Of a DNA stretch of 64,000 bases, positions 6,177 to 54,910 are shown in pieces. Every line of letters begins with the position of its first letter. Position 1 is the stretch's first letter. Below the pieces are notes generated by a model, which worked only from the letters and a program-made list of their open reading frames with translations, was not told the origin of the DNA and made no database searches. This stretch comes from Candidatus Dormiibacterota bacterium. Lineage in GTDB: Bacteria > Chloroflexota > Dormibacteria > Aeolococcales > Aeolococcaceae. The stretch lies in the NCBI GenBank assembly GCA_963709585.1, contig CAVPXI010000007.1, positions 416,001 to 480,000 of the forward strand, written 5' to 3'. The position numbers were made by a program, and so were the translations under genes.

Positions 6177-6773
6177 TTACAGAGGCGCTACGCCGATCAG
6201 GCCGTTGCGGGTGACCAGCGACGTCAGCGCGTCAACGTCGAGATCGCCCGTTCCCGACGGTCGTCGCGGTAACACCATGTAGCGCGATTCGGCGCTCGAA
6301 TCCCACACGTTCACGTCGACATCGGTGTCAAGGTCGAACCCAAATTCCGAAAGAACGGCGCGCGGGTCGCGAACAACGCGTGAGCGGTACGCCTCGCTCT
6401 TGTACCAAGTCGGCGACGGCCCGAGCAGCGCGATCGGGTAGCAGGAACACAGGGTGCAGACGACGACATTGTGGAGGCTTTCTGTGTTGGCCACGACCTT
6501 GAGCCGTTGCTGCTGGAGGCCGCCGCCCATTGACAGCCCCAGCTCCTCGATCGCGCTGTTCGCATGTGCGAGCAGCCGCGCGCGAAACGATTCGTCAACC
6601 CACGCCTGGGCGACAACCCGCGCGCCGTTGGCCGGCGACGACCGAGCCAGAAAGGCCTCGAGCGCCACTTCCAGCTCGCGTGCATCAACGAGCTCGCGCT
6701 GCTCGAGCAGACCTTCGACGTGACGTACGCGCGCCGCCAGGGAGCCAGGCGTGTGCTCGTGATCGCCGCTCAT
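6177..6773 (-). CDS. Nitrile hydratase alpha / thiocyanate hydrolase gamma subunit, cobalt type
   Basis: VVCTLCSCYP claw motif, PTWYKSEAYRSRVVRDPR, RYMVLPRRP. Confidence 0.92.
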   Translation of the reverse strand: MSGDHEHTPGSLAARVRHVEGLLEQRELVDARELEVALEAFLARSSPANGARVVAQAWVDESFRARLLAHANSAIEELGLSMGGGLQQQRLKVVANTESLHNVVVCTLCSCYPIALLGPSPTWYKSEAYRSRVVRDPRAVLSEFGFDLDTDVDVNVWDSSAESRYMVLPRRPSGTGDLDVDALTSLVTRNGLIGVAPL

Positions 6774-7054
6774 CGCGTGTCCTTGTGGACAGCGGTCAGG
6801 TAGCTCTGCCACAACGCGATCGTGACCGTGTGATCGCCCTCCCCGAAGAGGTCGCGTGCCGCGAACTGCACGGCGTAGACCGGTTCCGGCGTACTGTCGA
6901 TTCCCCGCGCGCGATCATCCGCCCGCGGATAGACACCCTCGCACTCGATCACGACGCCGACCGCCCCGCGGGCGTAGCGCGGAAGCCTGGTGTGGTGCGG
7001 TGGATCGATGCGACTGGTCTGAACGCGAGCGCCTGATGTGAATCGTTCAGCCAT
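6770..7054 (-). CDS. NHase beta C-terminal SH3-like subunit (ScnA-like)
   Basis: HTRLPRYARGAVG, VYAVQFAARDLFG, LWQSYL; ATGA overlap with the alpha gene. Confidence 0.88.
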   Translation of the reverse strand: MAERFTSGARVQTSRIDPPHHTRLPRYARGAVGVVIECEGVYPRADDRARGIDSTPEPVYAVQFAARDLFGEGDHTVTIALWQSYLTAVHKDTR

Positions 7055-7334
7055 CGCTCATCTCAGCGGCGGCGGTGAGGACTCCTTTCTCCACCAGGAG
7101 CGTGGAGATGGCGTGGAACCACCGCTCGTAATACGAGGCTGCCAGATACTGCTGCGCGGGCATGCGCTCCACTGCGTCGCGAAACTCGTCGAGGTTGTAG
7201 ATACCACGCCCAATCAGAGCACGGTTCATCGCAAAGACGTGCGCTTCCCCGTCCGCGTGGGACGGTGGCTCATCGACCTCGTGCACGAGCGGGGGAAATC
7301 CCTCCATGCCGCCGACGTCGTTGACTCAACTCAT
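7047..7334 (-). CDS. NHase beta N-terminal subunit (ScnB-like); codon 3 reads TGA, probably a miscalled CGA
   Basis: ATG 7334 gives M-S-*-VNDVGGMEGF (matches the HDxGGM start); NLDEFRDAVERM and YLAASYYERW. Confidence 0.85.
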
Positions 7335-9605: not shown

Positions 9606-10151
9606 TTAGGTCGTCGCCGCAGCCGGCACGTTCGCCTCGACGAGCTCGCCCTGGATGGTGATCTGAATTTCGCTGCCGACCACAAGCCTGCCATCCATGA
9701 GCATGTCGACGTTGAGACCGAAGTCCTTGCGCAGGATCTGCGTCTCCGCGCCGTAGCCGATCCGGTGGCCCATGTTGGGGTCGTTGAACTCTCCATAGTT
9801 CACGACTGCGAGGGTCACCGGTCGGGTGTTGCCCTTGATGGTCAGATCGCCAGTCATCGTGTATCGATCCGATCCAGCGCTTTCGATCTTCGTGCTCTTG
9901 AACGTGATGGTCGGAAAGTGTTCAACGTCGAGAAAGTTTGACGTGCGCAGATCGTTGTCGCGGCGTTCATTGTGGGTGCGAATACTCGCGGTCTGGATGA
10001 CCACCTCCACGGACGACGCCTCAGGATTTTCGACGTTGATGTCGCCCGACGCCTGCACGTCTGTGAAGTTGCCACGCACCGTCATCATGCCCAGATGCTT
10101 GACGGCGAACTCGACCTGCGTGTGCATCGGGTCCAATTGCCAGACGCCCAT
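9606..10151 (-). CDS. YceI family protein
   Basis: WQLDPMHTQVEFAVKHLG, RDNDLR...FLDVEHFPTITF, GDLTIKG; AGGAGG RBS. Confidence 0.92.
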   Translation of the reverse strand: MGVWQLDPMHTQVEFAVKHLGMMTVRGNFTDVQASGDINVENPEASSVEVVIQTASIRTHNERRDNDLRTSNFLDVEHFPTITFKSTKIESAGSDRYTMTGDLTIKGNTRPVTLAVVNYGEFNDPNMGHRIGYGAETQILRKDFGLNVDMLMDGRLVVGSEIQITIQGELVEANVPAAATT

Positions 10152-10469
10152 GAGCAACCTCCTGTCACGCGTCATCGTCGGCAGGGCATCGTAACGCTCG
10201 GGGCGGCACGCCGGCGTGTCTCGCCTGGACCGGTTCACCCGTGTCGTCGCCATCCAGTTCGGCTGGGTCCCGATCACATCGCCCGACGGCAATGGCTGGC
10301 CTCAGGGTGTCTGGGTCTCCTGCAGGAACTGATGGCCGCGCCGAAATCTCTCGGCAGTCGTCCCGCCACCCCGGTTTGATCGTCTGAGCCCACGCCTTCG
10401 GCTCTGATGCGGCGGTGACAATTCGCTGACCACTGGGACAGACGGCCCCGCGATGTAGAGACTGGCTCC

Positions 10470-11654
10470 ATGAGCACCACGGTCGACCCGAAGTGGTTCA
10501 CCGCGCCGCCCGGCCACTATCCGCTCGGTCCTCCGACAGCCTCGACCGATCGGTTCTTCGACATGGCGGCGGACCTCCTCTGTATCGCCGGGGTGGACGG
10601 CTACTTCAAGGTCGTGAACCAGGCCTGGAGTGAGGCACTGGGCTACCAGGATGGTGAGCTGCTCCAGAGGCCGTTCGTGGACTTCGTACATCCTGAGGAT
10701 CGGCGGGCGACGATCAACGCGTCATCCCAGGTCGCCAGCGGCTCCAAGCTCGTGCACTTCCGCAACCGCTATCGATGCAAAGACGGCACGTACAAATGGC
10801 TTGCGTGGTCGGCGTCGGCGGCGCTCAGCGACGGATCGATCTACGCGGTCGCACGCGATGTGACCGACGAGGTCGCCACTCAGGTCAACGTGCAACAGCA
10901 CCGCGATGCCCAGAGAACGCGCGTGCTGGGCGTCATGTCCGAGAACGCCATCCGGCCGGTCTTCCAGCCGATCGTCAACATCACCACGCTCGAGGTCGGC
11001 GGGTACGAGGCGCTGTCGCGGTTTGATCTCGCATCGGGAGCCGGCGGCTCGCCCGAGCAGTGGTTCGCGGCGGCTGAAGAGGCAGGACTGCGTTCCCAGC
11101 TCGAGATCCACGCGATCCGCAAAGCGGTGGCCCACGCGTACCAGCTGCCGTCCGAGGCATTTCTTTCTCTGAACGCCTCGCCTGTCACGCTGTTGCGCGA
11201 GGACTTCAGCCGCATGGTCGAAGCGCTGCACGGGGAATGCCTTGTCGTGGAAGTCACCGAGCATGCCGCAGTCGAGGACTACGAGCCGTTGCAGCGTGCG
11301 ATCGATCGTCTGCGCCACCACGGGGTGCGCCTCGCTATCGACGATGCCGGCGCCGGCTTCGCCAGCCTCAAACACATCGTGCATCTGCTTCCCGAGTTCA
11401 TCAAGCTCGACCTGTTCCTGATCCGCAACATCCATGAGGATCCCGTCAAGCGCGCGGTGGTCGCCGGCATGCTCGGCGTCGCGGCGCAGATCGGTGGCAA
11501 GGTCATCGCCGAGGGGGTCGAGACAGCCGACGAGTTGAGCGTGCTGCGCGAACTCGGGGTCGAGTGGGTTCAGGGCTACTACTTCGGGCGTCCGGGTCCG
11601 CTGCCCGCCGCCGTCACCGCCACCGGTTCGCGCTCGCCGACGCACCCTTCCTGA
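10470..11654 (+). CDS. PAS + EAL c-di-GMP phosphodiesterase
   Basis: PAS (FVHPEDR, YKWLAWS) followed by FQPIV, YEALSR, EVTE, DDAGAG, IKLD, AEGVE, QGYYFGRP. Confidence 0.92.
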   Translation: MSTTVDPKWFTAPPGHYPLGPPTASTDRFFDMAADLLCIAGVDGYFKVVNQAWSEALGYQDGELLQRPFVDFVHPEDRRATINASSQVASGSKLVHFRNRYRCKDGTYKWLAWSASAALSDGSIYAVARDVTDEVATQVNVQQHRDAQRTRVLGVMSENAIRPVFQPIVNITTLEVGGYEALSRFDLASGAGGSPEQWFAAAEEAGLRSQLEIHAIRKAVAHAYQLPSEAFLSLNASPVTLLREDFSRMVEALHGECLVVEVTEHAAVEDYEPLQRAIDRLRHHGVRLAIDDAGAGFASLKHIVHLLPEFIKLDLFLIRNIHEDPVKRAVVAGMLGVAAQIGGKVIAEGVETADELSVLRELGVEWVQGYYFGRPGPLPAAVTATGSRSPTHPS

Positions 11655-11690
11655 CCTCGGCGGCCGCGAGGGCTGTCGTAGGATGGCTCG

Positions 11691-11915
11691 GTGGAGGAGG
11701 CAACGCTCGCGGTCGCGTCTGGGGAGCTCGAGCAGCAGCTGGAGGGACAGCGGAAGGCGTTGACCGGCTACTGCTATCGCATGCTCGGCTCGCCGTTCGA
11801 GGCCGAAGACGCGGTGCAGGAGACCATGCTCCGCGCCTGGCGCGGGTTCGACCACTTCGAAGGCCGCGCCGCGCTGCGTTCCTGGCTGTTCCGGATTGCC
11901 ACCAGCGTCTGGTAG
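11691..11915 (+). pseudogene. Truncated ECF sigma factor (region 2 only)
   Basis: [28 protein letters not shown]...SWLFRIAT then stop; no region 4 before the next gene. Confidence 0.8.
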
Positions 11916-13625: not shown

Positions 13626-15104
13626 TCAGGACGAGACCGCGACGGGAATCTCCAGCGCCAGCTTGTCCATCTCGAGTTGCGCCGGAACGTCGACCGGATA
13701 GGAACCCGTGAAGCACGCGAAGCAGAAGCCGTTGCCGTCGGGCTGTCCCATCGCGCGGCGCAGACCGGCGAGACTGAGATAGCGGAGCGAGTCGGCGCCG
13801 AGCATCGCGCCGATCTCGCGCTCGGTGTGACCGGCGGCGATCAGCTCACGCCGCGACGCGATGTCGATACCCATGAAGCACGGCCACGCGATCGGCGGCG
13901 ACGCGATGCGCATGTGCACCTCGCTCGCGCCGGCGCGGCGCAGCTCGTCGATGATGCGGCGCGACGTGGTCCCGCGTACGATCGAGTCGTCGACGAGCAC
14001 CACGCGCCGGCCTTCGAGCACGTGGCGCATCGGGTTGAACTTCAGACGGATCCCGGCTTCGCGCAACCGCTGGGTTGGCTGGATAAAGGTGCGCGTGATG
14101 TAGCGCGACTTGATCATGCCTTCCGCAAAGGGCAGCCCCGCCTGCTCCGCGTATCCGATAGCCGCCGGGGTGCCGCTGTCGGGCAGGGTGATCACGATGT
14201 CCCCGTCCGCGGGCGCCTCGCGCGCCAGCTCGCGGCCCATCTGGCGCCGCAACTCGTACAGCGACTTGCCCATCATCACGCTGTCGGGCCTGGCGAAATA
14301 GATGAATTCGAACGAGCACATCGCGCGGTGCGCGGCAGTCCGCTGGATCTTGGTGCTGCGCATGCCGGAGGCATCGACGGTCACGATCTCCCCGGGCTCG
14401 ATCTCGCAGAGGAACGTCGCCCCGACGACGTCGAGCGCACACGTCTCGCTCGCCATCACGTATCCGGTGCCGCCGGGCGCGTCGATGTCGCCGAAGCGGC
14501 CGAGACACAGCGGGCGGATGCCGAGCGGGTCGCGCGCGGCGACCAGCGAATCCTTGGTGAGGAACACGAGGCAGTACGCGCCCTCGACACGGGGCAGCGC
14601 TTCCGCGAGCGCCTGCTCCAGCGTGTCCGCCTTGGTCTGCGAGAGCAGTGCGCCGAGCACCTCGGTGTCGCTCGTGGTCTCGAAGCTGAAGCCCTTGGTG
14701 ATCAGCTCGTCGCGCAGCTTGGTGGCGTTGACAAGGTTACCGTTGTGCGCGATCACCACCGGACCGATCGTCGGATGCTCGACGGCTAACGGTTGGGCGT
14801 TGAGCAACCGCGCGCTGCCGGTGGTGCTGTAGCGCGTGTGCCCGATGGCGATGTTGCCCTTGAGGCCGTCGATGATCTCCTGGTCGAACACCTGCGAGAC
14901 GAGGCCCATCTCCTTGCGGATGCGAATCTCGTGACCATCGCTGACCGCGATACCGGCGGACTCCTGTCCGCGATGCTGCAACGAGTACAGGCCGAAGTAC
15001 GTCAGGTTGGCGACGTCCTCGCCCGGGTGGAACACCCCGAAGACGCCGCATTCCTCATGGAGATGATCGTCGTCGAAGGCGTCCATTCCGGCCTGATCAC
15101 TCAC
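13626..15104 (-). CDS. purF: Amidophosphoribosyltransferase
   Basis: HEECGVFG propeptide site, LQHRGQESAG, GHTRYSTTG, VDDSIVRGTT, CFACF. Confidence 0.97.
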   Translation of the reverse strand: MSDQAGMDAFDDDHLHEECGVFGVFHPGEDVANLTYFGLYSLQHRGQESAGIAVSDGHEIRIRKEMGLVSQVFDQEIIDGLKGNIAIGHTRYSTTGSARLLNAQPLAVEHPTIGPVVIAHNGNLVNATKLRDELITKGFSFETTSDTEVLGALLSQTKADTLEQALAEALPRVEGAYCLVFLTKDSLVAARDPLGIRPLCLGRFGDIDAPGGTGYVMASETCALDVVGATFLCEIEPGEIVTVDASGMRSTKIQRTAAHRAMCSFEFIYFARPDSVMMGKSLYELRRQMGRELAREAPADGDIVITLPDSGTPAAIGYAEQAGLPFAEGMIKSRYITRTFIQPTQRLREAGIRLKFNPMRHVLEGRRVVLVDDSIVRGTTSRRIIDELRRAGASEVHMRIASPPIAWPCFMGIDIASRRELIAAGHTEREIGAMLGADSLRYLSLAGLRRAMGQPDGNGFCFACFTGSYPVDVPAQLEMDKLALEIPVAVSS

Positions 15105-17317
15105 GCTCTATCAACGCTCCTTCATGCACCCTGCGCACGTCGGCGAGTGACGCGTCGATGCACCCGGTCACACCGACCCTCTCGCCTCCGACGGAGCCGA
15201 GACCACGGAAGGGGACCGAATGCCGCCCTGCCAGCTCGTGCAATCGCACAAGTGCCTCCCTGGCGAAGCTGATGACGAATCGAGATTGACTTTCACCGAA
15301 CAGTATACCGGCCGCCCCGGTATTCAACCCTGCATCCTTCCCAAGCTCCTCGATGCCCACCCAGGCGCCTATGTCGCCCAGCAGACACGACTCGGCGATC
15401 GCGATCGCGATCCCACCCTCCGCGCAGTCGTGTGCGGAGTGGAGCAGCCCGGCGGCGATGGCATCGAGGACGAAGCCGTGCACGCGTCGCTCGAGGTCGA
15501 GATCGAGATGGGGCGGGACGCCGGCGTTGACCCCATGGGCGATCCGCTGGTACTCGCTGCCATCGAGCTCGGCTTCGACAGGCCCGACCAGCGCAATGAG
15601 GTCACCATCGTCGCGAAATCCCGCGGTGCATCGCTGCGTGACGTCGTCGATGACCCCCACCATGCCAATGACAACGGTCGGATCGATCCCGGTACCACCC
15701 GTATCGTTGTACAGGCTCACGTTGCCGCTCACCACCGGGATCTCGAGCGCCCTGCAGGCGGCACCGATGCCATCAATTGCGTCGTGGAGGTCCCACCACA
15801 CGTCGGCGTGCTCGGGATTGGCGAAATTGAGACAGTTGGTGATTGCGGCCGGTTTCGCGCCCGTGGCGACGACATTGCGCGCCGCCTCGCACACGGAGAT
15901 CATCGCTCCCAGCCGCGCATCGAGCGCGGTATACCGCGAGTTGCCGTCGGTCGCCAGCGCGAGCCCGAGCGACGTGCCGTCGACGCGCACCAGTGCCGCA
16001 TCACCACCGGGAAGGATCAGCGTCGCGTCGCCGACCTGATGGTCGTACCGCCTGTAGACCGATGCGCGACTCCCGAGGTTCGGGCTGCCAAGGAGTTGGA
16101 GCAGTGCCTCGTCGTGGCTCCACGACGGCATCGGACCGGGTGCTGCGGAAGGTGCAGGGGGGTCCGGGCGCGGACCCGGGGAGCCGCGCGGCGGCGCGCC
16201 GTCGACCAGGAGGTCGAGGGGCAGGTCGCAGACACGATCGCCGCCGTCGCGGACCACGAAACGCTGCTCGGGAAGGATCACCGCGACCACGTCAGAGTGA
16301 AGGTCCCAGCGCTCGAACACCGACTGCAAGGATCGAACGTCATCCGGCCTGGCCACGATCAACATGCGCTCCTGCAACTCGCTGAGCATCACGTCGTACG
16401 GGGTCATGCCGGTCTCACGGCGCGAGGCGCGCGCGACGTCGACCTCGATACCGCACCCGCCGCGATGCGCGAGTTCCGCGGTGCTGCCGCAGAGCCCGGC
16501 CGCGCCAAGATCCTGCATCGCGATCACGCGCGGATCACCGGCGAGCTCCAGGCACGCCTCCATCAGGCACTTCTCGAGAAATGGGTTGCCGACCTGCACG
16601 GCGGGGCGGCGCGCAGCACTGTCCGCGTCGAGCACCACCGAAGCGAAGCTCGCGCCGTGGATGCCGTCGCGGCCGGTGTCGGCGCCGACGAGGAGCACGA
16701 GGTTGCCCGGGCCGCTTGCGGTTGCGCGCGTCAACCTGCCCTGCTCGACGACGCCGACGCACATCGCGTTGACGAGGCAGTTGGTCCGGTACGAACTCAT
16801 CGAAGTACAGTTCACCGCCGACCGTCGGCACGCCGATGCAGTTGCCGTACCCGCCAATTCCGGCCACGACCCCGTCGAACAGATGACGCTGGTGGGGCTC
16901 GTCGAGAGGACCGAATCGCAGGGAATCGAGCAGCGCAACCGGGCGCGCGCCCATCGTGAAGATGTCACGGAGGATGCCGCCAACACCGGTCGCAGCACCC
17001 TGGTACGGCTCGATCGCGCTGGGGTGATTGTGCGACTCGATCTTGAACACGCAGGCAAGACCGTGGCCGATGTCGACGGCGCCGGCGTTCTCGCCCGGCC
17101 CCTGGAGCACGTGCGGCCCTTGCGTGGGAAGCGTGCCGAGCAGCGGCTTGCTTGTCTTGTAGCTGCAGTGCTCGCTCCACAGCGCGCCGACGATGCCGAG
17201 CTCGAGGCGATTCGGTTCGCGCCCGAGCGATGTGACCAGGTGCACGTATTCGGCGCGGGTGAGCGCCACCTCCGCAAGGTCGGCGTCGCTCGCCACCGCG
17301 ACCTGCACGCTGGTCAC
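15097..17317 (-). CDS. purL: FGAM synthase large subunit, +1 frameshift at 16793-16798
   Basis: [42 protein letters not shown]; GTGA overlap with purQ. Confidence 0.95.
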
Positions 17318-18033
17318 GAAACGGCCGCAACCGGCATCGCACCATCGCGACTGACCATCTTCGCCACGCTGTTGAACAGCAGCATCCCGTCCGAGGATCC
17401 GAGCAGCGCTTCGCACGCCCGCTCCGGGTGCGGCATCATACCGAGCACGTTGCGACGCTCATTGACGATACCCGCAATGTCGTGCATCGACCCGTTCGGC
17501 GATGCGTTCTCCACCGCCGATCCGTCCCGCCGCACATATCGAAACGCCACCCGCTGCTCGCGTTCCAGCGCGTCGAGCGTCTCTTCGTCAGCAACGAAAC
17601 GCCCCTCCCCATGCGACACCGGAATCTGCAGAACATCCCCGCGCGCACACCCCGCGGTGAAGGCGGTATCGATAGTCTCCACGCGCAACCAGGCGGGTGC
17701 GCACCGAAACTCCAGCGAGCTGTTGCGCGTCAGTGCCCCCGGCAGCAGATGTGCCTCGCACAGGATCTGAAACCCATTACAGATCCCCCAGACGAGTCCC
17801 CCAGCACTCGTAAACTCGGCAACGGACTCCATCAACGGCGCAAAACGAGCGACGGCCCCCGCACGCAAGTAGTCGCCATACGCGAACCCACCAGGGAGAA
17901 TCACGCAATCAGCGCCGCGCAAATCCCGATCCTTGTGCCAAAGCATGACCGCTTCATGCCCCGCAAGTTCGACCGCGTGCCGGCAATCGCGATCCGACCA
18001 AGTCCCCGGAAACACCGCGATCCCAAACCGCAT
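17314..18033 (-). CDS. purQ: FGAM synthase glutaminase subunit
   Basis: [34 protein letters not shown]. Confidence 0.97.
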
Positions 18034-22346: not shown

Positions 22347-24638
22347 TGTCCTGGATGGGTGGTTGGTTCGATCCCGAGCTCGAGGACCTCTTCCACGACG
22401 ACCCCGAACTGCTCGAGACGGCGCGGCAGGTGCGCGCCGCGCGCCCGCGCTCCGAGCCCGATCCGCGCTTCCAGAACCGGCTTCGCGCTCAGCTCGTCGC
22501 CGAGGCTTCGCGCGGCTTCAGCGCCCGCGGCGTGCGCCGGTGGTGGCGGCTCGGACCGACGCACTTCGCGTGGGGCGGGGCGGTTGTCGGGGCGGCATTG
22601 ATCACCGCGACAGTGTTCACCTTCGTCTCGAACCACGCCCCGGATCAGACGGTCACGGCGTTCTCGCAACTCAGCGCCCAGCACTCGGTCAGCCCGAACC
22701 AGGTGATCACGGTCGCGTTCAACCAGCCGATGGATGAACATGCCGTCGAGGCGGGGGTCCAGATCCAGCCGGCGATCAAGGTGACGTACTCCTGGAAGGA
22801 CAACAACCTGGTGATCTCGCCCGCGTATCACCTCTCCGCGAATACCCCATACACGGTGACCATCGCCCAGACCGCCATCCGCGCGTCCTCGGGCGCGTTG
22901 GCGGTGGCACCGATCAACATCACCTTCGGGACTGCGCCGACGCCAACTCCCGGCCCCGTGGCCCCGCCGTCGCTCAGTCCCGCGGTGGTCGGTTCGAACG
23001 GAACCGGCGGCTCGCTGCTCTACGCGCCGGACGGCTCACTGGTCAGCACCGTCGGTCTGCTTCCAGCGTCGGCGATAACCTCCCAGAGCCCAACCGTGAC
23101 CGCTGCAGGGGCAACCCCGACGGCGAGCCCGACGCCGACACCCGAGGGCACGATCACGCAGACTCCCGAGGTACCGGGATCGCTCGTCGAATTCCCCCGC
23201 TCCGGAGCTCCAACCCAGCTCGGACCGCTTCCTCCCAGCGCGGCGGCATTCTCGCCCAACGGCGGTCGTTACCTCGCAAGCGCGGTGGATAACGGCAACG
23301 GCGGTTCGACGATCGTCGTCACCAGGAGCGACGGAACCCAGACCGAGAGGCTCGTCGAACTCGACAACGCCCGTAACCGCGTTGACGTGGGCGACGAACG
23401 ATCGAATCATCTACACCGACGGCATCACCATCTGGTCGGTTGACGTGTCCAAGGCAAAGGCGCAGTTGTACGCGCATACCGGGTCGGGCACGATCACCGC
23501 GCTCGCCCTCGGTGGTGGATACGCCTACGTCTCGCCGGCCGCCGGCACCGGCGGCGCACTGCTGAACATCAACACCGGAGCCGCCCAGGTGCTCACGGGC
23601 GCCGTGAGTGACGTCGCGTTCAGCGGTGACGGCACCATCGTGGCCTGGGTCGACGAATCGGCGCACCCGGCCCGCATCCTTACCGAGAGCATCGCTCGGG
23701 GCGCGTCGACGCAGGCGGCACCGACGGCGGTGTCAACGCCCGACACGACCGCGACTCCCAGCGATGTCGCGCTCGATCTGACGGGCGACGAGATCGCGTA
23801 TCTCAGCACGGATTCGGCGGGCGTCGCTGAACTGGTGGTTGCCCAACTGGCGAGCGGAACGCCGCTTGCGGTCGAATCACCGTCGAATGCCACCCAGATC
23901 ACGCTGTCCCCGCCCGGCGACCAGGTCGCGTTCGTCTCGAACACGGCGGGCGGCGCGTCGATCGAACAGGCCCCGGTCCCGGGCGCCACGACGAAGCCGC
24001 ACGGCCCGCAGATACCCGCCGGCGCCAACCGCACCCTGCAGCAATTCGTCCAGGCGCAGGTCGGTCAGGACGGCCAGCCCGATTTCGCCACACTCGGCGC
24101 GCTGAGCGCACCCGGAAAGGACTTCTCGTCGAGCACGCCGCAGGACCTCAGCCGGGCGTACGTGATCAGCACCTACCTCGACCAGGGTGTGGTCGGCGCG
24201 AGCATCGAGCTGATCGTCGATCCGAGTTCCGGGCATACAACCACGCGATTCGCCAGCGAGACGCTGCTCATCGCCCAGGGACCCAGCGGTGGATACGTGG
24301 TCACGTCGGCACACACCTCGCAGCTCCGTGACCAGTCGGCGGGGCCGCACGTCGTCCAGGTGAGCTCGAACACCGCGAACGGCGTCACCACACTCCAGGT
24401 GAGCTTCGACAGCGACCTCAACCCGGGCAGCGTCGCGAGCGCGATCGCGGTGCTCTCCGCGTCCGGGACGACACTGCCTTCGACGGCTGTCTACAACCCC
24501 GATACGCGAATCGCCACCGTGACCATCGACAACGCTCCGACCGGGACATTGACGCTGGACATCGCGACCACGCTCGCTGACTTCAAAGGTCAGACCCTCG
24601 TGCAGGGCTTTACGACGAACGTCGAGGCCAATTCCTAA
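22346..24638 (+). CDS. Putative anti-sigma factor: cytoplasmic domain, TM, Ig-like (Big_5-like) domains and TolB-like propeller; frameshift at 23357-23362
   Basis: TGATG coupling to the sigma gene; PDPRFQNRLRAQL; TM; ITVAFNQPMD; AFSPNG/AFSGDG repeats; LQVSFDSDLNP. Confidence 0.75.
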
Positions 24639-25396
24639 CCGCGCGCTTCCGGTCTGAAGCACCAAAGCGTCGCGCGAACCGGAATGCGCATGGTCCCGTC
24701 CGCGGCGGTGCACGCCGCCAGCGCGCGCTGACACCCGGTGCGAATTTCGCGGAGCGCCGCATCGGATTCGCGCTCCAGGTCGGCGGCGACAGGCCGGTCG
24801 CCGACCATCGCCGCCCAGTAGTGTCCGATACCGTCGAAGCGCACCACGTCGTGCAGCGTCACCGGCTCCCAGCGCGCGCTCTGCACCGGATCTGGGCCGG
24901 CGAGACAGCGCGCCAGGAACTCGGAGTGGATCCCGGCGACATCGCGCAGCGCATCGACGAGCGCGACCTCGTGCAGCGGAGGCAGCGCCGCATCCCACGC
25001 GAGGAGCACGGCACCTCCGGTGGGGCGGGTGGCGCGCTCCGCGGTATCGAGCAGCGACGCGCCTTCCCAGAAGCCGACGGTGCAGAGTGACCCCACCCGG
25101 TCGCACGACGAATCCGCAAGCGCGAACGCTCCGCCGATCGCCAATTGCGTCGAGGCTGCGCATCCGGTTTCGCACACGTTGCCGAGTGCGGTCTGGAGGA
25201 GGGCGGCGTCGGTGTCGACGAGCACGACGGCTCCCTTCCTCGCGACCGCAGTGCCCAGTGCCACGCCGAGCGTCCCGCCGTCGCACATCAGGTCGCAGAC
25301 GGTCTCTCCGGGCTGCACGCCGAGCGCGCCGACAATCTGCTCGGCAAGCGGTCGAAGCACGGCGCTCGCGTACAGCCGCCCGAATCGCGGCTCCAC
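24635..25396 (-). CDS. Methyltransferase-fold protein with degenerate motif I
   Basis: QPGETVCDLMCDGGTLG, LVDTD, LADSSCDRV, RPTGGAV; GTG 5 nt after the biotin carboxylase stop. Confidence 0.65.
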   Translation of the reverse strand: MEPRFGRLYASAVLRPLAEQIVGALGVQPGETVCDLMCDGGTLGVALGTAVARKGAVVLVDTDAALLQTALGNVCETGCAASTQLAIGGAFALADSSCDRVGSLCTVGFWEGASLLDTAERATRPTGGAVLLAWDAALPPLHEVALVDALRDVAGIHSEFLARCLAGPDPVQSARWEPVTLHDVVRFDGIGHYWAAMVGDRPVAADLERESDAALREIRTGCQRALAACTAADGTMRIPVRATLWCFRPEARG

Positions 25397-25401
25397 GCTC
25401 G

Positions 25402-26841
25402 CTAGCCGGAAACGGCGATCGCCGCGGCGATCGCCGCGACGCGTGCGGGGTCGCGCACGACCCGCCGCAACGGTTCCTGACGTTTCGCCCATTCGTCAGC
25501 CGTCGCCACCAGGTCGGGGTGTTGCTCGATGAACGCGGTGCTGTACGTACCGGCGCGAAAGTCGGGGTCGTCGATCACCGCAAGGTGGTACGCGATGTTG
25601 GTGTGGATTCCGGTGATGATGTATTCGAGGAGTGCGCGGCGCATCCGATCGAGCGCCATGACGCGAAGTCGGCGCGTAGGTGATCAACTTGGCGATCATC
25701 GGGTCGTAGTTGGGGGAGACGAGCCCCGGGCTCACCAGCGAGCTGTCGACGCGCACACCGGGGCCGGCTCGTGGTAGCCGGTGACCTGCCCCGGCGAGGG
25801 AAGGAAGCCGCGCGCGTAGTTCTCGGCATTGATCCGGCACTCGACGGCGTGGCCGCGCGGAACGACCTGCTCCTGACGCAGCGACAAGTGCTCGCCTGCG
25901 GCGATGCGCAACTGCTCGCCCACGAGGTCGATGCCGTACACAAGTTCGGTCACCGGGTGCTCGACCTGCAAACGCGTGTTCATCTCCAGGAAATAGAACT
26001 CACCGCCGCGGTAGATGAACTCCACGGTTCCAGCGTTGACGTAGCCGACCGCCTTGGCGGCGGTCACCGCCGCCTGTCCCATGCGCGCGCGAGTCTCCGC
26101 GTCGATGACCGGCGACGGCGCCTCCTCGAGGATCTTCTGGTGACGTCGCTGGATGGAGCATTCGCGCTCGCCGAGGTGGATGACGTTGCCGTGCGTGTCC
26201 GCCAGCACCTGGATCTCGATGTGGCGTGGTTCCTCGAGGTACCGCTCGAGAAAGATCGTGTCGTTGCCGAATGCGCGCTGCGCGGTGCTCTTCGCGGTGT
26301 CGAATGACGCGCGCAGTTCATCTTCGTCCCCGGCGACGCGCATCCCGATACCACCACCACCGGCGCTCGCTTTGATGAGCACGGGATACCCGATGCCGCG
26401 AGCGGCGTCGACGGTTTCGTCGATGTCACGGAGCGCACCGGTCCCCGGGACGACCGGAACGCCTGAGCCGCGCATACGCTCGCGGGCGGGCACCTTCTCG
26501 CCCATCGCGGCCATGGCGTCGGGCGGCGGGCCGACAAAGACGATGCCGCTCTCCTCACACGCGCGCGCGAGCTGCTGATTCTCACTGAGAAACCCATACC
26601 CGGGATGGATCGCCTCCGCGCCGGTCGCGCGAGCCGCGGCGATGATGCGGTCGATCACGAGGTAGGACTGCGCCGCCGGGGCGGGGCCGATCTCCACCGC
26701 TTCGTCGGCGAGCAGGACGAACGCCGCGGTGCGGTCGGCTTCGCTGTGCACCGCCACGGTTCGCACTCCGAGGTCGCGGCACCCGCGGATGATCCGCAGC
26801 GCGATCTCGCCGCGATTGGCGATGAGCACCTTGTCGAACAT
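25402..26841 (-). CDS. Biotin carboxylase (PycA/AccC type), frameshifts near 25765 and 25665
   Basis: [62 protein letters not shown]; AAIAAAIA tail as in two-subunit pyruvate carboxylase A subunits. Confidence 0.93.
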
Positions 26842-26862
26842 GGATGACTCCTCAGCCGGTGC

Positions 26863-28656
26863 TCACGCGCCGATCTGGATGAGCGGCGCACGCGGTCCTA
26901 CCACGACGCCCTCCTTCACGTACACCTCGGTGACGGTACCCGTCCGCGTCGCGGTGATGTCGTTCTGCATCTTCATCGCCTCGAGCACGCACACGACGTC
27001 CCCGAGCGCGACATGGTCGCCGACCTTGACGTTGACCTTGAGCAGCAAGCCCTGCATCGGCGACACCACCGTCCCTTCGCGGACCGCCGGCGCCGCCTTG
27101 GCGGTCGGCGCCGCGACGGACGGGGCGCCGGCATCGCCGCCACCGGTGATGCGCACTGCATAGCTCTGTCCGTCGACCTCCACAGTGAGCTCACGAACCG
27201 GAAGCGCGTTCGGGTTTTCACCCTGCGGCTCACTGGCGGGGGCGTCGGCGACCGCGAGCGGTTCGGACGGCCGTGCGGTCGGTGCGGGGTCCGGTTCGTC
27301 CCCGAGCCGTTCGGCGACGGCGTCACCGCGGACCAGGTTGAGGTAGGCATTCGGAAAGAGCGCATAGGTGACCATCGCGGGCGGATCCGGCTTCGCGTAT
27401 CCCTCGCGGATGAGCTCGCGGCGAGTTGTCTCCATCGCGGGCTCGAGGAGGTCGGCCGGGCGGCAGGTGATCGGCTCTTCCCGGCCGTTGACGAGACGCC
27501 GGACTTCGGGGTCGATCGGTTCGGGAGGCTCGCCGTAGAGGCCGAGGCAGTAGTCCTTGATCTCCTGGCTGATGGTCGCGTAGCGGTCACCCTCGACCAC
27601 GTTGTAGACGGCCTGCGTGGCCATGATCTCGGTGAGCGGCGTGATCAGCGGTGGGTATCCAAGCTCGGCGCGGACCTGGACGACGTCCGCCTCCACCTCG
27701 GCAAGGCGTCCGAGGGCGTTGCGCTCGCGAAGCTCGGCAATGGCGTGGCCCATGGCGGAGGGCGGCAGCAGTCCGCGCAGCGCCGAGGTGTCGAGACGGG
27801 CCGCGAGCGGATCGATGACGTCCGCGTACTGGACCAGCTCCTGTTCGAGCACCAACGCGGCGGCGGCGATACGCTCCAGGTCGAGACCGGGATCGACCTC
27901 GGTCCCGGCGAACCCCGCCACCAGCGCCTCGGCGCCGGGCATCGATGCACCGCCGGCGAGCGGCGAAAGCGCGCAGTCGGCGCGATACGCTCCCGCGATC
28001 GCGGCAGCGTGGCACGCCAGTGCGGCCATTCCCGTCTGCGCCGAGATCGAGACCGCCACCGGGACCCCGGCGGCCTCGCGGACCACCTTCACCGCCTTCG
28101 CGGCGGCGGCAGCACCCAGGACGCCGAGCGGATCGTGCAGGCAGATCGTCGGGTACCCGGCATCGACGAGCCTTCGAGCCACGTCCCCGAGGCCGTCGAG
28201 GCCGCGCCCGGGCACCTCGTTGTAGACGATGACGCCTTCGGCCTGCTTCCCGGCGGCCGCGATCGCCGTCGCGCAGCGTTCGAGATTGCGGACGTCGTTC
28301 AGCGGGTCGTAGCAGCGAAAGATGTCGACTCCCGCCGCAGCGGACGTCTCGATGAAGGCGTCGACCAGGTCGTCGGGGACCTGACGGTGTCCGACCAGCG
28401 ATTGCCCGGCGATCAACGCTAGAAAGGGCGTGATCGGCGCGGCGGCGCGGATTGCACGCAGCCGCTCGAAGGGATCCTCAGCGAGAAAGCGCAGCGACGC
28501 CTCAAATGTCGAGCCGCCGAAGACGTCGAGAGCGGCAAAACCGCAATGGTCGAGGGTCTCGGCGACCGGCAGAGCGTGGCGTAGGCGCAGTCTGCTGACC
28601 ATGAGCGACTGCTGCCCATGGCGGAGCGACGTCTCCACCAACTCGAGGCGGGGCAT
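26863..28656 (-). CDS. PycB/OadA-like protein with degenerate carboxyltransferase site and intact biotinyl domain
   Basis: Scaffold motifs GGSTFEASLRFLAEDPFERL, LGYPPLITP, ITCRPADLLEP and EAMKMQN biotin site; catalytic motifs altered. Confidence 0.88.
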   Translation of the reverse strand: MPRLELVETSLRHGQQSLMVSRLRLRHALPVAETLDHCGFAALDVFGGSTFEASLRFLAEDPFERLRAIRAAAPITPFLALIAGQSLVGHRQVPDDLVDAFIETSAAAGVDIFRCYDPLNDVRNLERCATAIAAAGKQAEGVIVYNEVPGRGLDGLGDVARRLVDAGYPTICLHDPLGVLGAAAAAKAVKVVREAAGVPVAVSISAQTGMAALACHAAAIAGAYRADCALSPLAGGASMPGAEALVAGFAGTEVDPGLDLERIAAAALVLEQELVQYADVIDPLAARLDTSALRGLLPPSAMGHAIAELRERNALGRLAEVEADVVQVRAELGYPPLITPLTEIMATQAVYNVVEGDRYATISQEIKDYCLGLYGEPPEPIDPEVRRLVNGREEPITCRPADLLEPAMETTRRELIREGYAKPDPPAMVTYALFPNAYLNLVRGDAVAERLGDEPDPAPTARPSEPLAVADAPASEPQGENPNALPVRELTVEVDGQSYAVRITGGGDAGAPSVAAPTAKAAPAVREGTVVSPMQGLLLKVNVKVGDHVALGDVVCVLEAMKMQNDITATRTGTVTEVYVKEGVVVGPRAPLIQIGA

Positions 28657-28726
28657 TGCCGGGCATTCTAGCCAGCGGTAAGGCTGTGGGCTGTTGACAG
28701 GACAACCGTCAGCCGCCGGCGCGCCG

Positions 28727-29224
28727 CTACGAGAGGGTGAATCCCTCCGGGAGTTGCACCTTGGAGCGCATGCGCTCCCGTTCCTCCTTGATGCGAGCGG
28801 CAACCTCTGCATCGAAGAGACCGATGATCTCGGCGGCAAGATGACCGGCGTTCCGCGCACCCATCGGCCCGACCGCGACCGTGGCGACGGGGATGCCCGG
28901 CGGCATCTGCACGATGGACAGGAGCGAGTTGAAACCGGCGAGCGGCGTTGCCGCGAGCGGCACGCCGATCACCGGCAGCGTGGTCAGCGAGGCGAGCACA
29001 CCGGGAAGATGAGCGGCGGCTCCGGCGCCCGCGATCAGCACCTGCAGCCCGCGATCGGGCGCGGCCAGCGCGTATGCGCGCACCACGTCGCCCGCCCGGT
29101 GCGCCGACATGACCCCGATCTCCCACCCGATCCCGTAGCCGTCGAGCACCTCACCGCAGGTGTTCATCACGGGCAGATCGGACTCGCTGCCCACGAGGAT
29201 GCCGACGCGCACCGCCTTGGTCAC
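28727..29224 (-). CDS. purE: N5-CAIR mutase (class I signature)
   Basis: [38 protein letters not shown]. Confidence 0.97.
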
Positions 29225-30516
29225 GAATGCACACCCGCGGTCGCCGATTGCCCGATATCGGTGCGGGCCTGCATGCCGTCGAAATGCACGCGCGCAAGAT
29301 TGCCATACGCACGTGCTCGCGCGGCCTCGACATCAGCAGCGACCGCGGTGACGCAGAGCACGCGACCTCCGGCGGTGCGCAACGAGCCGGCGCCGTCGCG
29401 CGCGGTTCCCGCGTGAAAGCAGAACACATCGTCATCGAGCGACTCGATCCCGGTGATCACGTCGCCGCGGCGAACGTCGCCGGGGTACCCGGCAGCCGCT
29501 GCGACCACGCCGATCGCGGTCCCGGACGCAGCGGCTGCGATACCGGCCGGCACTTCGCCTCGGGCGCATGCGGTGAGCACGTCGAGCAGCGGCTCGTCGA
29601 GGAGCGGGAGCACCACCTGGGTCTCGGGATCGCCGAAACGGGCGTTGAACTCGAGCACGCGCACGCCGTCGGGAGTGAGCATCAAGCCCGCATACAGACA
29701 TCCCACAAATGGAGTGCCCTGCTCGCGCAACGCGTCGATGCAGGGCTCGAGCACGGTGCGCGTCACCTCCTCGACGAACGTACTCGACGCCGCGTCGGGA
29801 GGCGGGGCGACCGCGCCCATGCCGCCGGTGTTGGCGCCACGATCGCCATCGAACATGCGCTTGTGGTCGCGTGCGGGAGCCAGGGTGCGCACGTTGCGTC
29901 CGTCACTGAGCCCGAACACGCTCACCTCGGGACCGTTGAGCAATTCCTCGATGACGACCTGCCGTCCCGCATCGCCGAAACGCAGCTCGGCGAGGCACTC
30001 GTCCAGGGCTCGCTCCGCATCCTCGACGCCGCTGCAGACGACCACGCCCTTGCCGAGCGCGAGCCCGTCGGCCTTGACCACGCAGGCTCCGCCAAGGTCG
30101 GCGACGAACGCGCTGAGGCGGGTGCGATCCGCGGCTTCGCCCGCACACCAGCGCGCCGTTGGGATACCCGCCGCGTCCATCACCTGCTTCGCGAACGTCT
30201 TGGACGACTCGATGCGCGCCGCGGCGGCCGTCGGCCCGAAGACGAGCACGCCGCGTGCGCTGCACGCGTCGGCCACGCCCGCCGCCGCCGCCGCGTCGGG
30301 TCCGATGATGACCAGATCCACAGCGCGCTCCGAGGCGACCTGGGCGACCGCAAACGCGTCGGTGACGTCAATGGGGACGTTCTCGGCGAGGTCAGCGGTG
30401 CCGGCGTTGCCGGGAGCGACGATGATCGCCACATCGGGCGAATCGCGCCGGCACGCCCAGGCCAGCGCGTGCTCGCGTCCGCCGGATCCGACGATGAGGA
30501 CTCGCCCTATTCCCAT
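29221..30516 (-). CDS. purD: Phosphoribosylamine-glycine ligase
   Basis: [40 protein letters not shown]. Confidence 0.97.
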
Positions 30517-35732: not shown

Positions 35733-36811
35733 TCATGTCGCAGCGACACCTCGGAGCGTCGCGAGGCGCCCCGGCTCGCTGGTCAGCACGCGACCGACCA
35801 CGCTCGCGGCGCGCTGCGCGCCGGCAGCGTCCACGTCCAGGTGGGTCACGCACCGGAGCGTATGCGGACCCATGGAGCTCACCAAGACGCCGTCCTCGCG
35901 CATCCGATCCGCGAGCTCCGCCGCGGGCGCGAGCGTGTCGAACATGACGATGTTGGTGGCCACGGCAGGCCGCCGCAGTGTCGCGCCGGCGCATCCGGCG
36001 ACGGCGTCGGCAATGACCCTCGCATTGGCGTGGTCCTCCGCCAGCCGCTCGACGTTGTGTTCGAGGGCGTACAGACCCGCAGCCGCGATGACGCCCGCCT
36101 GGCGCATGCCGCCGCCGAGCCGTTTGCGCCACCGTCGCACCGCCTCGATGGTCGGTGCATCGCCGGCGACCACCGACCCGACAGGAGCACCGAGCCCCTT
36201 GCTGACGCAGACCGTGACCGTGTCGCACTCGTCCACCAGCTCGGCGGGGGTCACGCCCAGCGCCACGGCAGCATTGAACAGCCGCGCTCCGTCGCAGTGC
36301 ACACGGAGCCCCTGGGCATGCGCGGTGCGCGCGGCACCGTGCACCCGGGCCACGTCGATGGCGCCACCACCTCTGCGGTTATGCGTGTTCTCGATACAGA
36401 GGAGGGTGGACACGGGCTGATGGATGTCCGGCGCCCGAACCGCCGCGGTGATCGAACTTCGGCATCGGGGACGCCGTCGACGCTCTCGAGGACGCGGAGC
36501 TGGATGCCTGCGACAATCGCCGTGCCACCAACCTCGTAGACCACCAGGTGCGCCTGCGCGTCTGCGATGACCTCATCGCCGGGTCGCGTCTGCGCGGCGA
36601 CGCACGCGAGGTTGCCCATGGTCCCGCTCGGCACGAACACAGCCGCCTGCTTGCCAAGGCGGCGCGCCATCTCTTCCTCGAGGCGTCTGACCGTGGGATC
36701 CTCGCCCCAGACATCGTCGCCGACTTCGGCGTGCGCCATGGCAGCCCGCATCCCCTCATCGGGAACGGTCAGCGTGTCACTCCGGAGATCGACGATGCCT
36801 GGCGCTGACAT
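35733..36811 (-). CDS. ltaE: Low-specificity L-threonine aldolase, +2 frameshift at 36454-36460
   Basis: DLRSDT, GDDVWGEDPT, PSGTMGN, IENTHN, HCDGARLFNA, SKGLGAPVGS. Confidence 0.93.
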
Positions 36812-38840
36812 TGCTCTCGCTCTGCATGACCTGCGCATCCTGAACCATCGACGGCGTCGCTCGCGCCGGCGGTGCGTCATCCGGTGCACCGGCCATGCAT
36901 GTCCGATCGCGTCCCATCCGCTTGGCCTGGTAGAGAGCGCCGTCGGCGAGGCCGAACAGCTCGGCAGCGTCGTTCGTGTCCTCGGGGTACGCGGCCACCC
37001 CGATGCTGACGGTCAGACGCAGCGCGACGCGACCGGGAAGGTCGACGTCGGTCGCCGCGACCGCGTGCCGGATCTTCTCGGCGACCATGAATGCCTCTCG
37101 AGCGGACGTGTTCGGCATCACCACCACGAACTCTTCGCCACCGTAGCGCGCGGTCATGTCCGCGCGCCGGACGTTGCCGGCGACCGTCCTGGCGAAGGTC
37201 GAGAGCGCGAGGTCACCGGCAGGGTGACCGTGCGAGTCGTTCAGTGCCTTGAAGTGGTCGATATCGAGCATGAGGATCGCCAGCGGCGCTCCCAACCGCT
37301 CGGCGAGCGCCACCTGTTGTCCGAGTGAGTCGACCAGGAAACGATGGTTGTAGAGGCCGGTGAGGTCGTCGACGGTGGCCTGGCGCTGCACCACCGCGAG
37401 GAAGCGGTAGCGCTCGAGCGCAAGTGAGATCTGCTCCGCGGTCGACGCGACCAGGTCGGAGTCGCCGGCGGTGAATACGCTGTCCTGACCGGCGACCGCG
37501 AGGACGCCGTGCACGTGCTTGCCGAGCCGGAGCGGAGCCACGCAGAACTCGCGAACATCGAGTTCGGCCTCGGGCGCGATCGCGGTTGCGCCGAGGATGA
37601 TCGCGCCGAGCCCCTCGTACCGATATCCTTCGCCGAGCGGTCCGCGTCCTTCGAGAAAGCCGTCGAAGCTGATGCGACGCCCGCCGTCGGCGACCGCGAA
37701 TGGATCGCTCATCTCCGAAGCGTTCACGACGATCATCGCCAGGTCCACGTTCATCGATCGACGCAACTCGGCGCAGACATTGGCGAGCGCTGCCTCCAGG
37801 GGCTGGGCGAGGCTGAGCTCCATCGCGATCGTGGCTCGGCTCGCGGTGACGCGCATCGTCGAACGGACCTGAACGCGCATCGCCTCGAAGCTCGCGCCCA
37901 GCCTGCCGACCTCATCCACGGACCCCGCGAGCACGGGTCGATCGAAGTCGCCGCTCCCCAGTGCCGCGACCGCGCCGTCGAGACGCTGCAGCGGCCGGCG
38001 CAGATCGATCTGCACGACGATCACGATGAAGAGCATCGCGACCAGGATCACCGCGAACAGCAGCAGTGCCGACTGCCAACCAATAGGCGGACCGGAGAAC
38101 GGCGTCAGCACCACCAGGGTGAGCCCGTCGCCGATCGATGTGGACGCGACGGCGAACTGATGGGAGTCGAGGGAGACCACCGTCGGAGTCGACGCCGAGA
38201 TCGCGGCGGTGAGCGCCGGGGTCAGCGCGTCGACGCCGCCCGCCACCGCGAGCGCGCGGTCGCGGCGGACCAGGAGCAGCCCGACCCGATCGGCTGCGGT
38301 TGCGACGTTGCGATCGATGGCATCGATCAATGCCGCGGTCAGCGGCCGAGCGACGAACGCGATCGCCGATGTCCCCGGAACGTGTGACGCGGCGACGAGC
38401 CACGCCGCGGCACCGGACGTTGCGGTCGTGTTCGCGCCGGTCGCCGCGCTGACGATGCTTCGCGTTGAGGCGTCCGAGAGAACCGTTGATCGCTGCACCG
38501 CGACAACACCGCCGTCGACCTGCTCGACCCCGAGGATGTCGTCGGTGCCGATCACCGACGCGTCCTCGACGAGCGTTGCCTGCACCGCCGCCGGCGCGGT
38601 GACGTGGCCGGCGGCGAGCTGGCGGCCAACGCCGGCGATGAAGGTCGCAAGCGACGCGCGCTGGCCGTCGATGAGATTGGAGGCGATCGAGACCCTCTCC
38701 GCCGCGCTGTTCTCAGCCTGGCTTCGCGTGCTGGCGGCGGCGAGCATCAGCGGCACAACCGCGATGGTCAGGCCCGCGACGAGAATCACCGCCGCGAATT
38801 TAGAGAGAACGATGCACCCCGCCAGATGCCGCTCAACCAC
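36777..38840 (-). CDS. Membrane diguanylate cyclase (sensor-HAMP-GAF-GGDEF)
   Basis: Two TMs, HAMP DEVGRLGASFEAM, DDLTGLYNHR, DIDHFK, RRAD I-site, RYGGEEF. Confidence 0.9.
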   Translation of the reverse strand: MVERHLAGCIVLSKFAAVILVAGLTIAVVPLMLAAASTRSQAENSAAERVSIASNLIDGQRASLATFIAGVGRQLAAGHVTAPAAVQATLVEDASVIGTDDILGVEQVDGGVVAVQRSTVLSDASTRSIVSAATGANTTATSGAAAWLVAASHVPGTSAIAFVARPLTAALIDAIDRNVATAADRVGLLLVRRDRALAVAGGVDALTPALTAAISASTPTVVSLDSHQFAVASTSIGDGLTLVVLTPFSGPPIGWQSALLLFAVILVAMLFIVIVVQIDLRRPLQRLDGAVAALGSGDFDRPVLAGSVDEVGRLGASFEAMRVQVRSTMRVTASRATIAMELSLAQPLEAALANVCAELRRSMNVDLAMIVVNASEMSDPFAVADGGRRISFDGFLEGRGPLGEGYRYEGLGAIILGATAIAPEAELDVREFCVAPLRLGKHVHGVLAVAGQDSVFTAGDSDLVASTAEQISLALERYRFLAVVQRQATVDDLTGLYNHRFLVDSLGQQVALAERLGAPLAILMLDIDHFKALNDSHGHPAGDLALSTFARTVAGNVRRADMTARYGGEEFVVVMPNTSAREAFMVAEKIRHAVAATDVDLPGRVALRLTVSIGVAAYPEDTNDAAELFGLADGALYQAKRMGRDRTCMAGAPDDAPPARATPSMVQDAQVMQSESNVSARHRRSPE

Positions 38841-54867: not shown

Positions 54868-54910
54868 GAGGGCGGAGTATAGGGGCCGTCAGGCCGCCGG
54901 ACGCGGCGGC

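Follow-up and report, generated by a model that had tools for sequence, protein, structure and literature searches.

The window analysed here is a stretch of 64,000 nucleotides from a Candidatus Dormiibacterota bacterium (GenBank assembly GCA_963709585.1, contig CAVPXI010000007.1, positions 416,001 to 480,000), in which purE is followed by a gene for a protein resembling the B subunit of pyruvate carboxylase (the PycB-like protein) and by a separate gene for a biotin carboxylase of PycA type. We favour, with somewhat less than even confidence, the reading that this pair represents a conserved, Dormibacteria-specific offshoot of PycA/PycB, which loads CO2 on biotin for an acceptor other than pyruvate. 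The fold, the biotin carboxyl carrier protein domain (BCCP) with its biotinyl lysine and the catalytic residues of the biotin carboxylase are kept under strong purifying selection. All catalytic positions are invariant in 22 out of 22 canonical sequences, and the replacement of such positions here bears out the suggestion, made in a preliminary description of this DNA, that the protein is probably not a pyruvate carboxylase.

The PycB-like protein consists of a triosephosphate isomerase (TIM)-barrel carboxyltransferase-like core (aa 1-300), the PYC_OADA domain (aa 300-460), a low-confidence linker and the BCCP (aa 526-597), the last recognised by its Biotin_lipoyl match (E 4e-17), with the codon of biotinyl-Lys562 at 26973..26971. 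The open reading frame (ORF) of 665 aa (26863..28860) initially assigned to it proved too long, as the orthologs have about 597 aa and place the start at the Met at 28656. HMMER alignments with the beta subunit of Methylobacillus flagellatus pyruvate carboxylase (5ks8_C, E 1e-106) and with OadA of Vibrio cholerae (2nx9_A, E 3e-84) reproduced every substitution listed in the preliminary description, i.e. RDGHQ to RHGQQ, LLRGQ to LIAGQ, IKDMA to LHDPL, HxH to SxS, PGGM to PPSA and TPTSQ to TPLTE, as well as the retention of the TP threonine and of the EAMKM biotin site. We used the numbering of the Rhizobium etli enzyme, which agrees with the offset of the 2qf7_A match and in which we take the metal ligands to be Asp549, carbamylated Lys718, His747 and His749, the pyruvate-binding residue to be Arg621 and the biotin side to be formed by Arg548, Gln552 and Thr882. 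All four metal ligands are gone (His13, His174, Ser203 and Ser205 occupy their positions), and the pyruvate-binding Arg of the LLRGQN motif is Ala83, with Ala or Gly at this position throughout the family. The biotin-side equivalents are all present, as Arg12, Gln16 and Thr339.

An AlphaFold2 model of the protein, computed from a 46-sequence alignment, reached a mean pLDDT (predicted local distance difference test) of 89.5 and was superposed by Foldseek on 2nx9_A with a template modelling score (TM) of 0.95 and a root-mean-square deviation (rmsd) of 1.6 A. Among the NCBIfam models, the domain-level NF006761 alone exceeded its cutoff (492 vs 402); the equivalog models stayed well under theirs, with 447 vs 756 for TIGR01108 (oadA), 355 vs 734 for PRK14041 (PycB) and 320 vs 1182 for PRK14042.

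A quick IQ-TREE phylogeny of 53 PycB-type sequences, with values of the Shimodaira-Hasegawa-like approximate likelihood ratio test (SH-aLRT) as the only branch support, placed the protein in a superclade of 30 rows (support 99) comprising four groups; a pattern scan of genome contigs (EAMKMQN, ATQAVYNV) had at least about 15 loci of the relevant clade among the matches listed. The family of the window falls into a monophyletic degenerate clade (support 100, stem 0.45). The other groups are a single fully canonical Dormibacteria PycB (locus L008), Limnocylindria-type records with Lys718 changed to Glu (L009, L010 and L012) and a clade with an intact metal site and Thr882 changed to Ala (L004, L007, L014 and L022), with which the protein P0128 groups, yet independently degenerate. 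Over nine representatives of the degenerate clade, the Asp position is occupied by H, H, A, Q, Q, H, W, H and I, the Arg621 position by A, G, G, T, R, R, G, A and A, the Lys position by H, H, H, H, Y, F, Y, L and W and the first-His position by S, S, S, A, H, H, A, S and R. On the biotin side, Arg548 is retained in eight and Gln552 in seven of these nine lineages, and the Thr882 position holds Thr or Ser in all nine. New residues at the pocket motifs are Gln15, Glu52, Pro176 and His304 in at least eight of the nine lineages, His90 and Glu343 in seven, and His174 in the window's own family. The half of the site that served pyruvate and the metal was thus dismantled once and has drifted since, with the biotin side kept. 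The sister clades lost the opposite half of the site, namely Thr882; given that loss and the loss of the metal half here, selection in this superclade no longer maintains coupled pyruvate transfer.

Individual records show the following variation. In L004, L007, L014, L016 and L022 (PycB-like gene mostly at about 10001-11830) the Asp, Lys, two His and both Arg are kept, the catalytic Thr882 is Ala and Ser885 is Arg (APIRQ for TPTSQ), and the gene is packed tightly behind purE; a NUDIX gene stands after the biotin carboxylase in L004 and L014. The genes of L009, L010 and L012 (10001-11791), located directly behind purE, combine the change of the carbamylated Lys to Glu (IEDVAG) with that of Thr882 to Ala. 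The former metal positions hold quite different residues (Trp/Tyr, Leu, Val, Trp) in L006 (10001-11803) and in the proteins P0125, P0128 and P0133; L006 is a Dormibacteria record with 51% G+C and with no purE nearby.

A word-index homolog search with the PycB-like protein gave 1439 matches among 8000 scored candidates, of which the best 120 have 61-98% identity and mostly about 597 aa, with a few fragments; more than 100 are full-length Dormibacteria orthologs. Of the nine matches with an NCBI organism name, eight are labelled Candidatus Dormibacteraeota, Dormiibacterota or Dormibacteria and one is assigned to Dehalococcoidia; public annotation of the family reads 'pyruvate carboxylase subunit B'. 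An alignment of 15 sequences (61-91% identity) averages 77% identity per column, with the motifs HDPL, LLPPxAMGH, GHR and EAMKM invariant. Ratios of nonsynonymous to synonymous substitution rates (dN/dS) computed against the 84%-identical L001 ortholog, which are only approximate because dS is near 1, came to 0.10 for the whole PycB-like gene, 0.057 for its barrel core and 0.084 for the BCCP, in comparison with 0.08 for the biotin carboxylase, 0.079 for purE, 0.17 for purD and 0.47 for the methyltransferase-like gene behind the pair. Within the protein, constraint is strongest in the barrel core, and simple decay of the gene, which the preliminary description had considered as another explanation of the substitutions, is refuted by these low values.

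Furthermore, longer proteins were searched for fusions. Thirty matches were obtained, none of them joined to PurE, PurK or another transferase; one of the 30 combines a PycB-like protein with a biotin carboxylase, and the others are ordinary single-chain pyruvate carboxylases of no more than 36% identity. The combined protein, P0392 of the European Nucleotide Archive (1063 aa, 54% identity to the query), has both parts in one chain, perhaps as a true fusion, perhaps by read-through. Another protein, P0103, carries an AIRC domain and was rejected as a real fusion, being a frame-shifted purE read-through into the PycB-like frame.

Linkage to purE was assessed in 14 places of the superclade, i.e. 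the window and 13 loci (L002, L019 and L021 were left out as their contigs are too short), using tblastn with Escherichia coli PurE and exact stop-to-start distances. In ten of the 14 (window, L001, L004, L007, L009, L010, L012, L014, L016 and L022) the PycB-like gene comes straight after purE, with at most about 125 nt between the purE stop and the PycB-like start in all ten and less than 45 nt in eight of them. Two further places (L003 and L008) have purE within 5 kb, which makes 12 out of 14 in total, and in L006 and L015 it is absent from the locus. Outside the superclade, purE was found in none of 20 full-length PycB loci, three of which have less than 400 nt of upstream flank. The comparison across relatives that the preliminary description had called for was therefore positive (adjacent in 10/14 vs 0/20). 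A biotin carboxylase gene comes after the PycB-like gene in all 14 places, with one intervening gene in L007 and L014.

The product of purE in the window passed the NCBIfam model TIGR01162 (167.6 bits, cutoff 149.6) and is 43-45% identical to E. coli PurE. It possesses the SAHR and AAHLPG loops, which we take as the signature of class I PurE, and SAHR is invariant in all 13 aligned PurE sequences. The PurE of L008 (5865-6311), a locus with canonical PycB, has Ala where AAHLPG has His (AGMAAALPG). Class I PurE requires N5-carboxyaminoimidazole ribonucleotide (N5-CAIR) from PurK unless CO2 is high, and the pur genes of Bacillus subtilis are arranged in the order purE-K-B-C-S-Q-L-F. The order in the window, purD-purE-(PycB-like, biotin carboxylase, methyltransferase-like)-(four opposite-strand genes)-purB-purC-purS-purQ-purL-purF, may be likened to it, with the gene pair in the slot of purK. 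That no purK is present in the window, as stated earlier, was substantiated by an NCBIfam scan of its 76 ORFs, in which the PurK model TIGR01161 produced only weak, sub-cutoff ATP-grasp cross-matches from the biotin carboxylase and PurD, and by tblastn with E. coli PurK, which matched neither the window nor any of 80 loci (best E 0.9).

Our literature search retrieved no paper tying purK or purE to biotin carboxylases in this way and nothing on the purK status of Dormibacteria. In supplement file 7 of PMC9561532, on cold-desert soil metagenomes, purE (K01588) appears 688 times and purK (K01589) 246 times, community-wide and not resolved by taxon; purK annotation is thus missing from many scaffolds on which purE is present. 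The review PMC10880623 states that PurE without PurK requires high CO2 and that PurK uses bicarbonate.

In the mechanism proposed here, the biotin carboxylase would use ATP and bicarbonate to carboxylate the biotin of the PycB-like protein. Carboxybiotin would then swing into the remodelled barrel pocket, where the biotin-side Arg12, Gln16 and Thr339 are kept, and the pocket would pass CO2 to a nucleophile able to react without a metal-stabilised enolate. Since the gene pair stands in an operon-like row right after purE, in the usual slot of purK, carboxylation of 5-aminoimidazole ribonucleotide (AIR) would be the first candidate for the acceptor step, either via the pocket on AIR or with PurE as the acceptor, and we put it forward as a tentative proposal of low probability. 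A complex prediction for the PycB-like protein with PurE returned no answer (score 0.00) and carries no weight either way on binding.

Several observations weigh against a dedicated carboxylation of a new acceptor. The old metal and pyruvate positions vary even inside the family (His/Ala, Ala/Gly and Ser/Ala/Val), and residues differing across sublineages are not what one conserved new substrate site predicts; moreover, no acceptor-binding motif was recognised in the PycB-like protein. The linkage to purE is common to the canonical PycB of L008 and to relatives with an intact metal site, it is therefore older than the remodelling and may reflect synteny by descent. The gene row is conserved as well, with guaB3, guaA and purD upstream and an Ig-like protein, sometimes with a sigma factor, downstream. 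The organisms being related and the whole neighbourhood syntenic, the linkage counts are not independent events.

The integrity of the biotin carboxylase gene also had to be considered. The preliminary description credited it with full catalytic motifs, and this holds for the residues: at the E. coli AccC positions that we took as diagnostic (Y82, K116, K159, E201, H209, K238, E276, E288, N290, R292, E296 and R338) 12 out of 12 are identical in the first piece of the window's gene and in L001, L003, L008 and L022. It does not hold for the gene as a whole, whose reading frame shifts twice and contains a stop. Three-frame translation of the DNA located the frame changes near 25766-25760 and 25668-25663 and an in-frame TGA at 25734-25732; the first frame is lost just past GYHEPA and closed by this TGA, the conserved stretch GPGVRVDS...YDPMIAKLI sits in another frame, and the original frame resumes near 25668-25663. 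The gene is intact, with a full Biotin_carb_C, in all 13 related loci (L001, L003, L015 and ten more). Frame breaks also affect purL, tldD and a gene for a beta-eliminating lyase, and none disrupts the orthologous carboxylase in any of the 13 loci; the breaks are therefore most likely assembly (indel) errors. Apart from these, the beta subunit gene of a nitrile hydratase (6773-7325, minus strand) has its N- and C-terminal halves on two adjacent ORFs with an 8-nt overlap, which could be a further frame break or a naturally split subunit.

How the pair could serve a purpose other than the favoured one, or none, may now be weighed. It might substitute for PurK, with biotin carboxylase and BCCP capturing bicarbonate at the expense of ATP and the carboxyl group reaching AIR, so that class I PurE is fed without PurK; transfer would yield N5-CAIR in the remodelled pocket, or else PurE would itself serve as the carboxyltransferase and receive the group directly. 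The short distance to purE in ten of the 14 places, the pur gene order with the pair in the purK slot, the negative PurK searches and the class I motifs of PurE all speak for such a role, as does the fact that an N-carboxylation has no need of a metal-bound enolate. In addition, according to PMC10880623, PurE alone requires high CO2, and a 2-oxoglutarate carboxylase of PycAB type likewise helps a CO2-using enzyme. However, the negative result for purK covers the window and 80 loci and not whole genomes, the same linkage is seen in canonical and metal-intact relatives, the pocket residues are non-uniform among the degenerate lineages, and none of the 30 longer proteins is fused to PurE or PurK. 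A system of about 1050 aa in place of an enzyme of 380 aa is also unparsimonious, and taken together we regard a replacement of PurK as rather unlikely. Slightly less probable still is that the pair loads and carries the carboxyl group for a carboxyltransferase whose gene lies at another site (e.g. one of acyl-CoA type), in which case the chemistry would be done by the biotin carboxylase and the BCCP only and the barrel would be a non-catalytic assembly core. The BCCP and the biotin carboxylase are indeed the most uniformly conserved parts (mean column conservation of the BCCP is 0.73 in degenerate vs 0.55 in canonical sequences), and sister clades decay in different halves of the old site, Thr882 or the metal site, which suggests that coupled transfer in it is dispensable. 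A merely structural barrel is difficult to reconcile with the core being the most constrained region (dN/dS 0.057) and with the full length retained in every lineage; no carboxyltransferase, accA/accD or accB match was obtained among the 76 window ORFs, and genomes without ordinary accB/accC would be required.

The public label 'pyruvate carboxylase subunit B', the NF006761 score above cutoff and the kept biotin-side Arg, Gln and Thr would agree with an enzyme that continues to carboxylate pyruvate or to decarboxylate oxaloacetate by means of an unconventional active site. We consider this very improbable, given that the Asp, the carbamylated Lys, both His and the pyruvate Arg, invariant in all 22 canonical sequences, are replaced, and that the equivalog scores for oadA and PRK14041 lie far under their cutoffs. 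Marginally less remote, and improbable as well, is that the pair is dying in this genome and the two frame changes and the in-frame stop of the biotin carboxylase are real. Against it, the window contains three more genes with frame breaks, purL included, the PycB-like ORF is intact with relatives of up to 98% identity, the orthologous carboxylases are intact and dN/dS is low. Non-pyruvate carboxylation by a PycA/PycB offshoot remains our preferred reading of the pair.

Behind the pair lies a gene for a protein with the fold of class I S-adenosylmethionine (SAM) methyltransferases. The length of 285 aa initially given for it was revised, because its family has 253 aa; the first ATG of the ORF is at 25492, and the 253-aa family puts the start about 100 nt downstream, for which reason translational coupling with the biotin carboxylase, suggested by the overlap of the long ORF with the carboxylase stop, was rejected. 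Methyltransf_25 scored above cutoff in the L003 copy, and look-alikes in the Atlas are generic class I methyltransferases. There are 210 homologs at E<=1e-5, those listed having about 253 aa, and the named matches bear Dormibacter* labels except one from Saccharimonadales. Among the fetched loci, the gene stands behind the pair only in the window's own family (window, L001 and L003); 12 contigs are apparently common to the PycB-like and the methyltransferase match lists, which fits conserved linkage. Members of the window's subgroup have CDGG in place of GxGxG in the glycine-rich SAM loop, and the gene evolves fast (dN/dS 0.47).

The features of the window are compiled in Table 1.

Table 1. 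Positions of the gene pair, its neighbours and the frame-broken genes in the window
Feature	Position	Strand	Remarks
purE, class I type (N5-CAIR mutase), 165 aa	28727..29224	minus	Pfam AIRC E 6e-54
purE/PycB-like spacer, 70 nt	28657..28726	minus	
PycB-like protein P0001, 597 aa	26863..28656	minus	Pfam HMGL-like, PYC_OADA, Biotin_lipoyl
Biotin carboxylase, PycA type	25496..26841	minus	read in three pieces; Pfam and NCBIfam matches on separate ORFs
Class I SAM-methyltransferase-fold protein	24635..25396 (start approximate)	minus	weak Pfam matches below cutoff in window copy
purD	30516..29221	minus	
GDH, guaB3, guaA, purD, purE, PycB-like, biotin carboxylase, methyltransferase-fold gene	consecutive row	minus	
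Phosphodiesterase-like gene, extracytoplasmic function (ECF) sigma factor, two Ig-like proteins	after methyltransferase-fold gene	opposite strand	four genes
purB, purC, purS, purQ, purL, purF	beyond the four opposite-strand genes	minus	
purL	15100-17458		split over two frames, parts of one Pfam profile on different ORFs
tldD	53427-54888		split over two frames, parts of one Pfam profile on different ORFs
Gene for a beta-eliminating (threonine-aldolase-type) lyase	35736-37012		split over two frames, parts of one Pfam profile on different ORFs

The G+C content of the window is 62-72%, and the NCBIfam profile scan covered 76 ORFs. Absence of purM, purN and purH from the window, mentioned in the preliminary description, was confirmed, as none of them was matched by these ORFs. 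A separate -10 box had also been ascribed to the PycB-like gene: the spacer does contain TAGAAT at 28670..28665, 8 nt 5' of the ATG, but a promoter scan by consensus yielded 0 sites. There is no Shine-Dalgarno-like purine run in the spacer. An Rfam scan of the whole window gave 0 matches, hence no riboswitch. The single terminator-like site that the consensus scan reported, inside the biotin carboxylase gene, is within chance expectation.

Among characterised systems, PycA/PycB of M. flagellatus (5ks8) is the best match in sequence and, with a Foldseek E of 5e-55, in fold. It shares the domain order (carboxyltransferase barrel, PYC_OADA, BCCP) and the adjoining separate biotin carboxylase gene; the window pair differs in having neither the metal ligands nor the pyruvate Arg and in its order, with the PycB-like gene preceding the biotin carboxylase right after purE. 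OadA of V. cholerae (2nx9) and the transcarboxylase 5S subunit (1rqb) are superposable with TM of 0.95 and 0.89-0.90, respectively, at rmsd of 1.6-2.0 A, and both keep the full metal and oxo-acid site, unlike the PycB-like protein; no membrane pump subunit or 12S partner was matched among the window ORFs. Biotin carboxylase and PurK are both ATP-grasp enzymes activating bicarbonate, and the pair occupies the usual place of PurK beside purE. Unlike PurK, it has no sequence membership in that family and involves a biotin carrier and a 450-aa barrel, which leaves a PurK-like role as a candidate only. 2-Oxoglutarate carboxylase carboxylates an oxo-acid and is expected to have kept its metal site, unlike the PycB-like family. 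The Aquificota enzyme, PycAB-like, is a relative of pyruvate carboxylase re-aimed at another acceptor, as is proposed here, and by the account in PMC10880623 it relieves a CO2-using enzyme when CO2 is low.

The lineage is new as a PycB without metal site and with conserved linkage to purE; it would be categorically new only if the link to AIR were proven. Annotation pipelines label the whole family as PycB, and if these organisms have no other pyruvate carboxylase, metabolic reconstructions would credit the widespread soil Dormibacteria with an improbable anaplerotic reaction. As a natural biotin-dependent carboxylase with a metal-less transferase site under strong selection, the protein points either to a new acceptor or to a new use of carboxybiotin. 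If the acceptor is AIR, the pair would add a new member to the few biotin-dependent carboxylations and be a non-orthologous replacement in a core pathway, and a biotin route derived from pyruvate carboxylase would then do the job of PurK in Dormibacteria and related Chloroflexota-type lineages.

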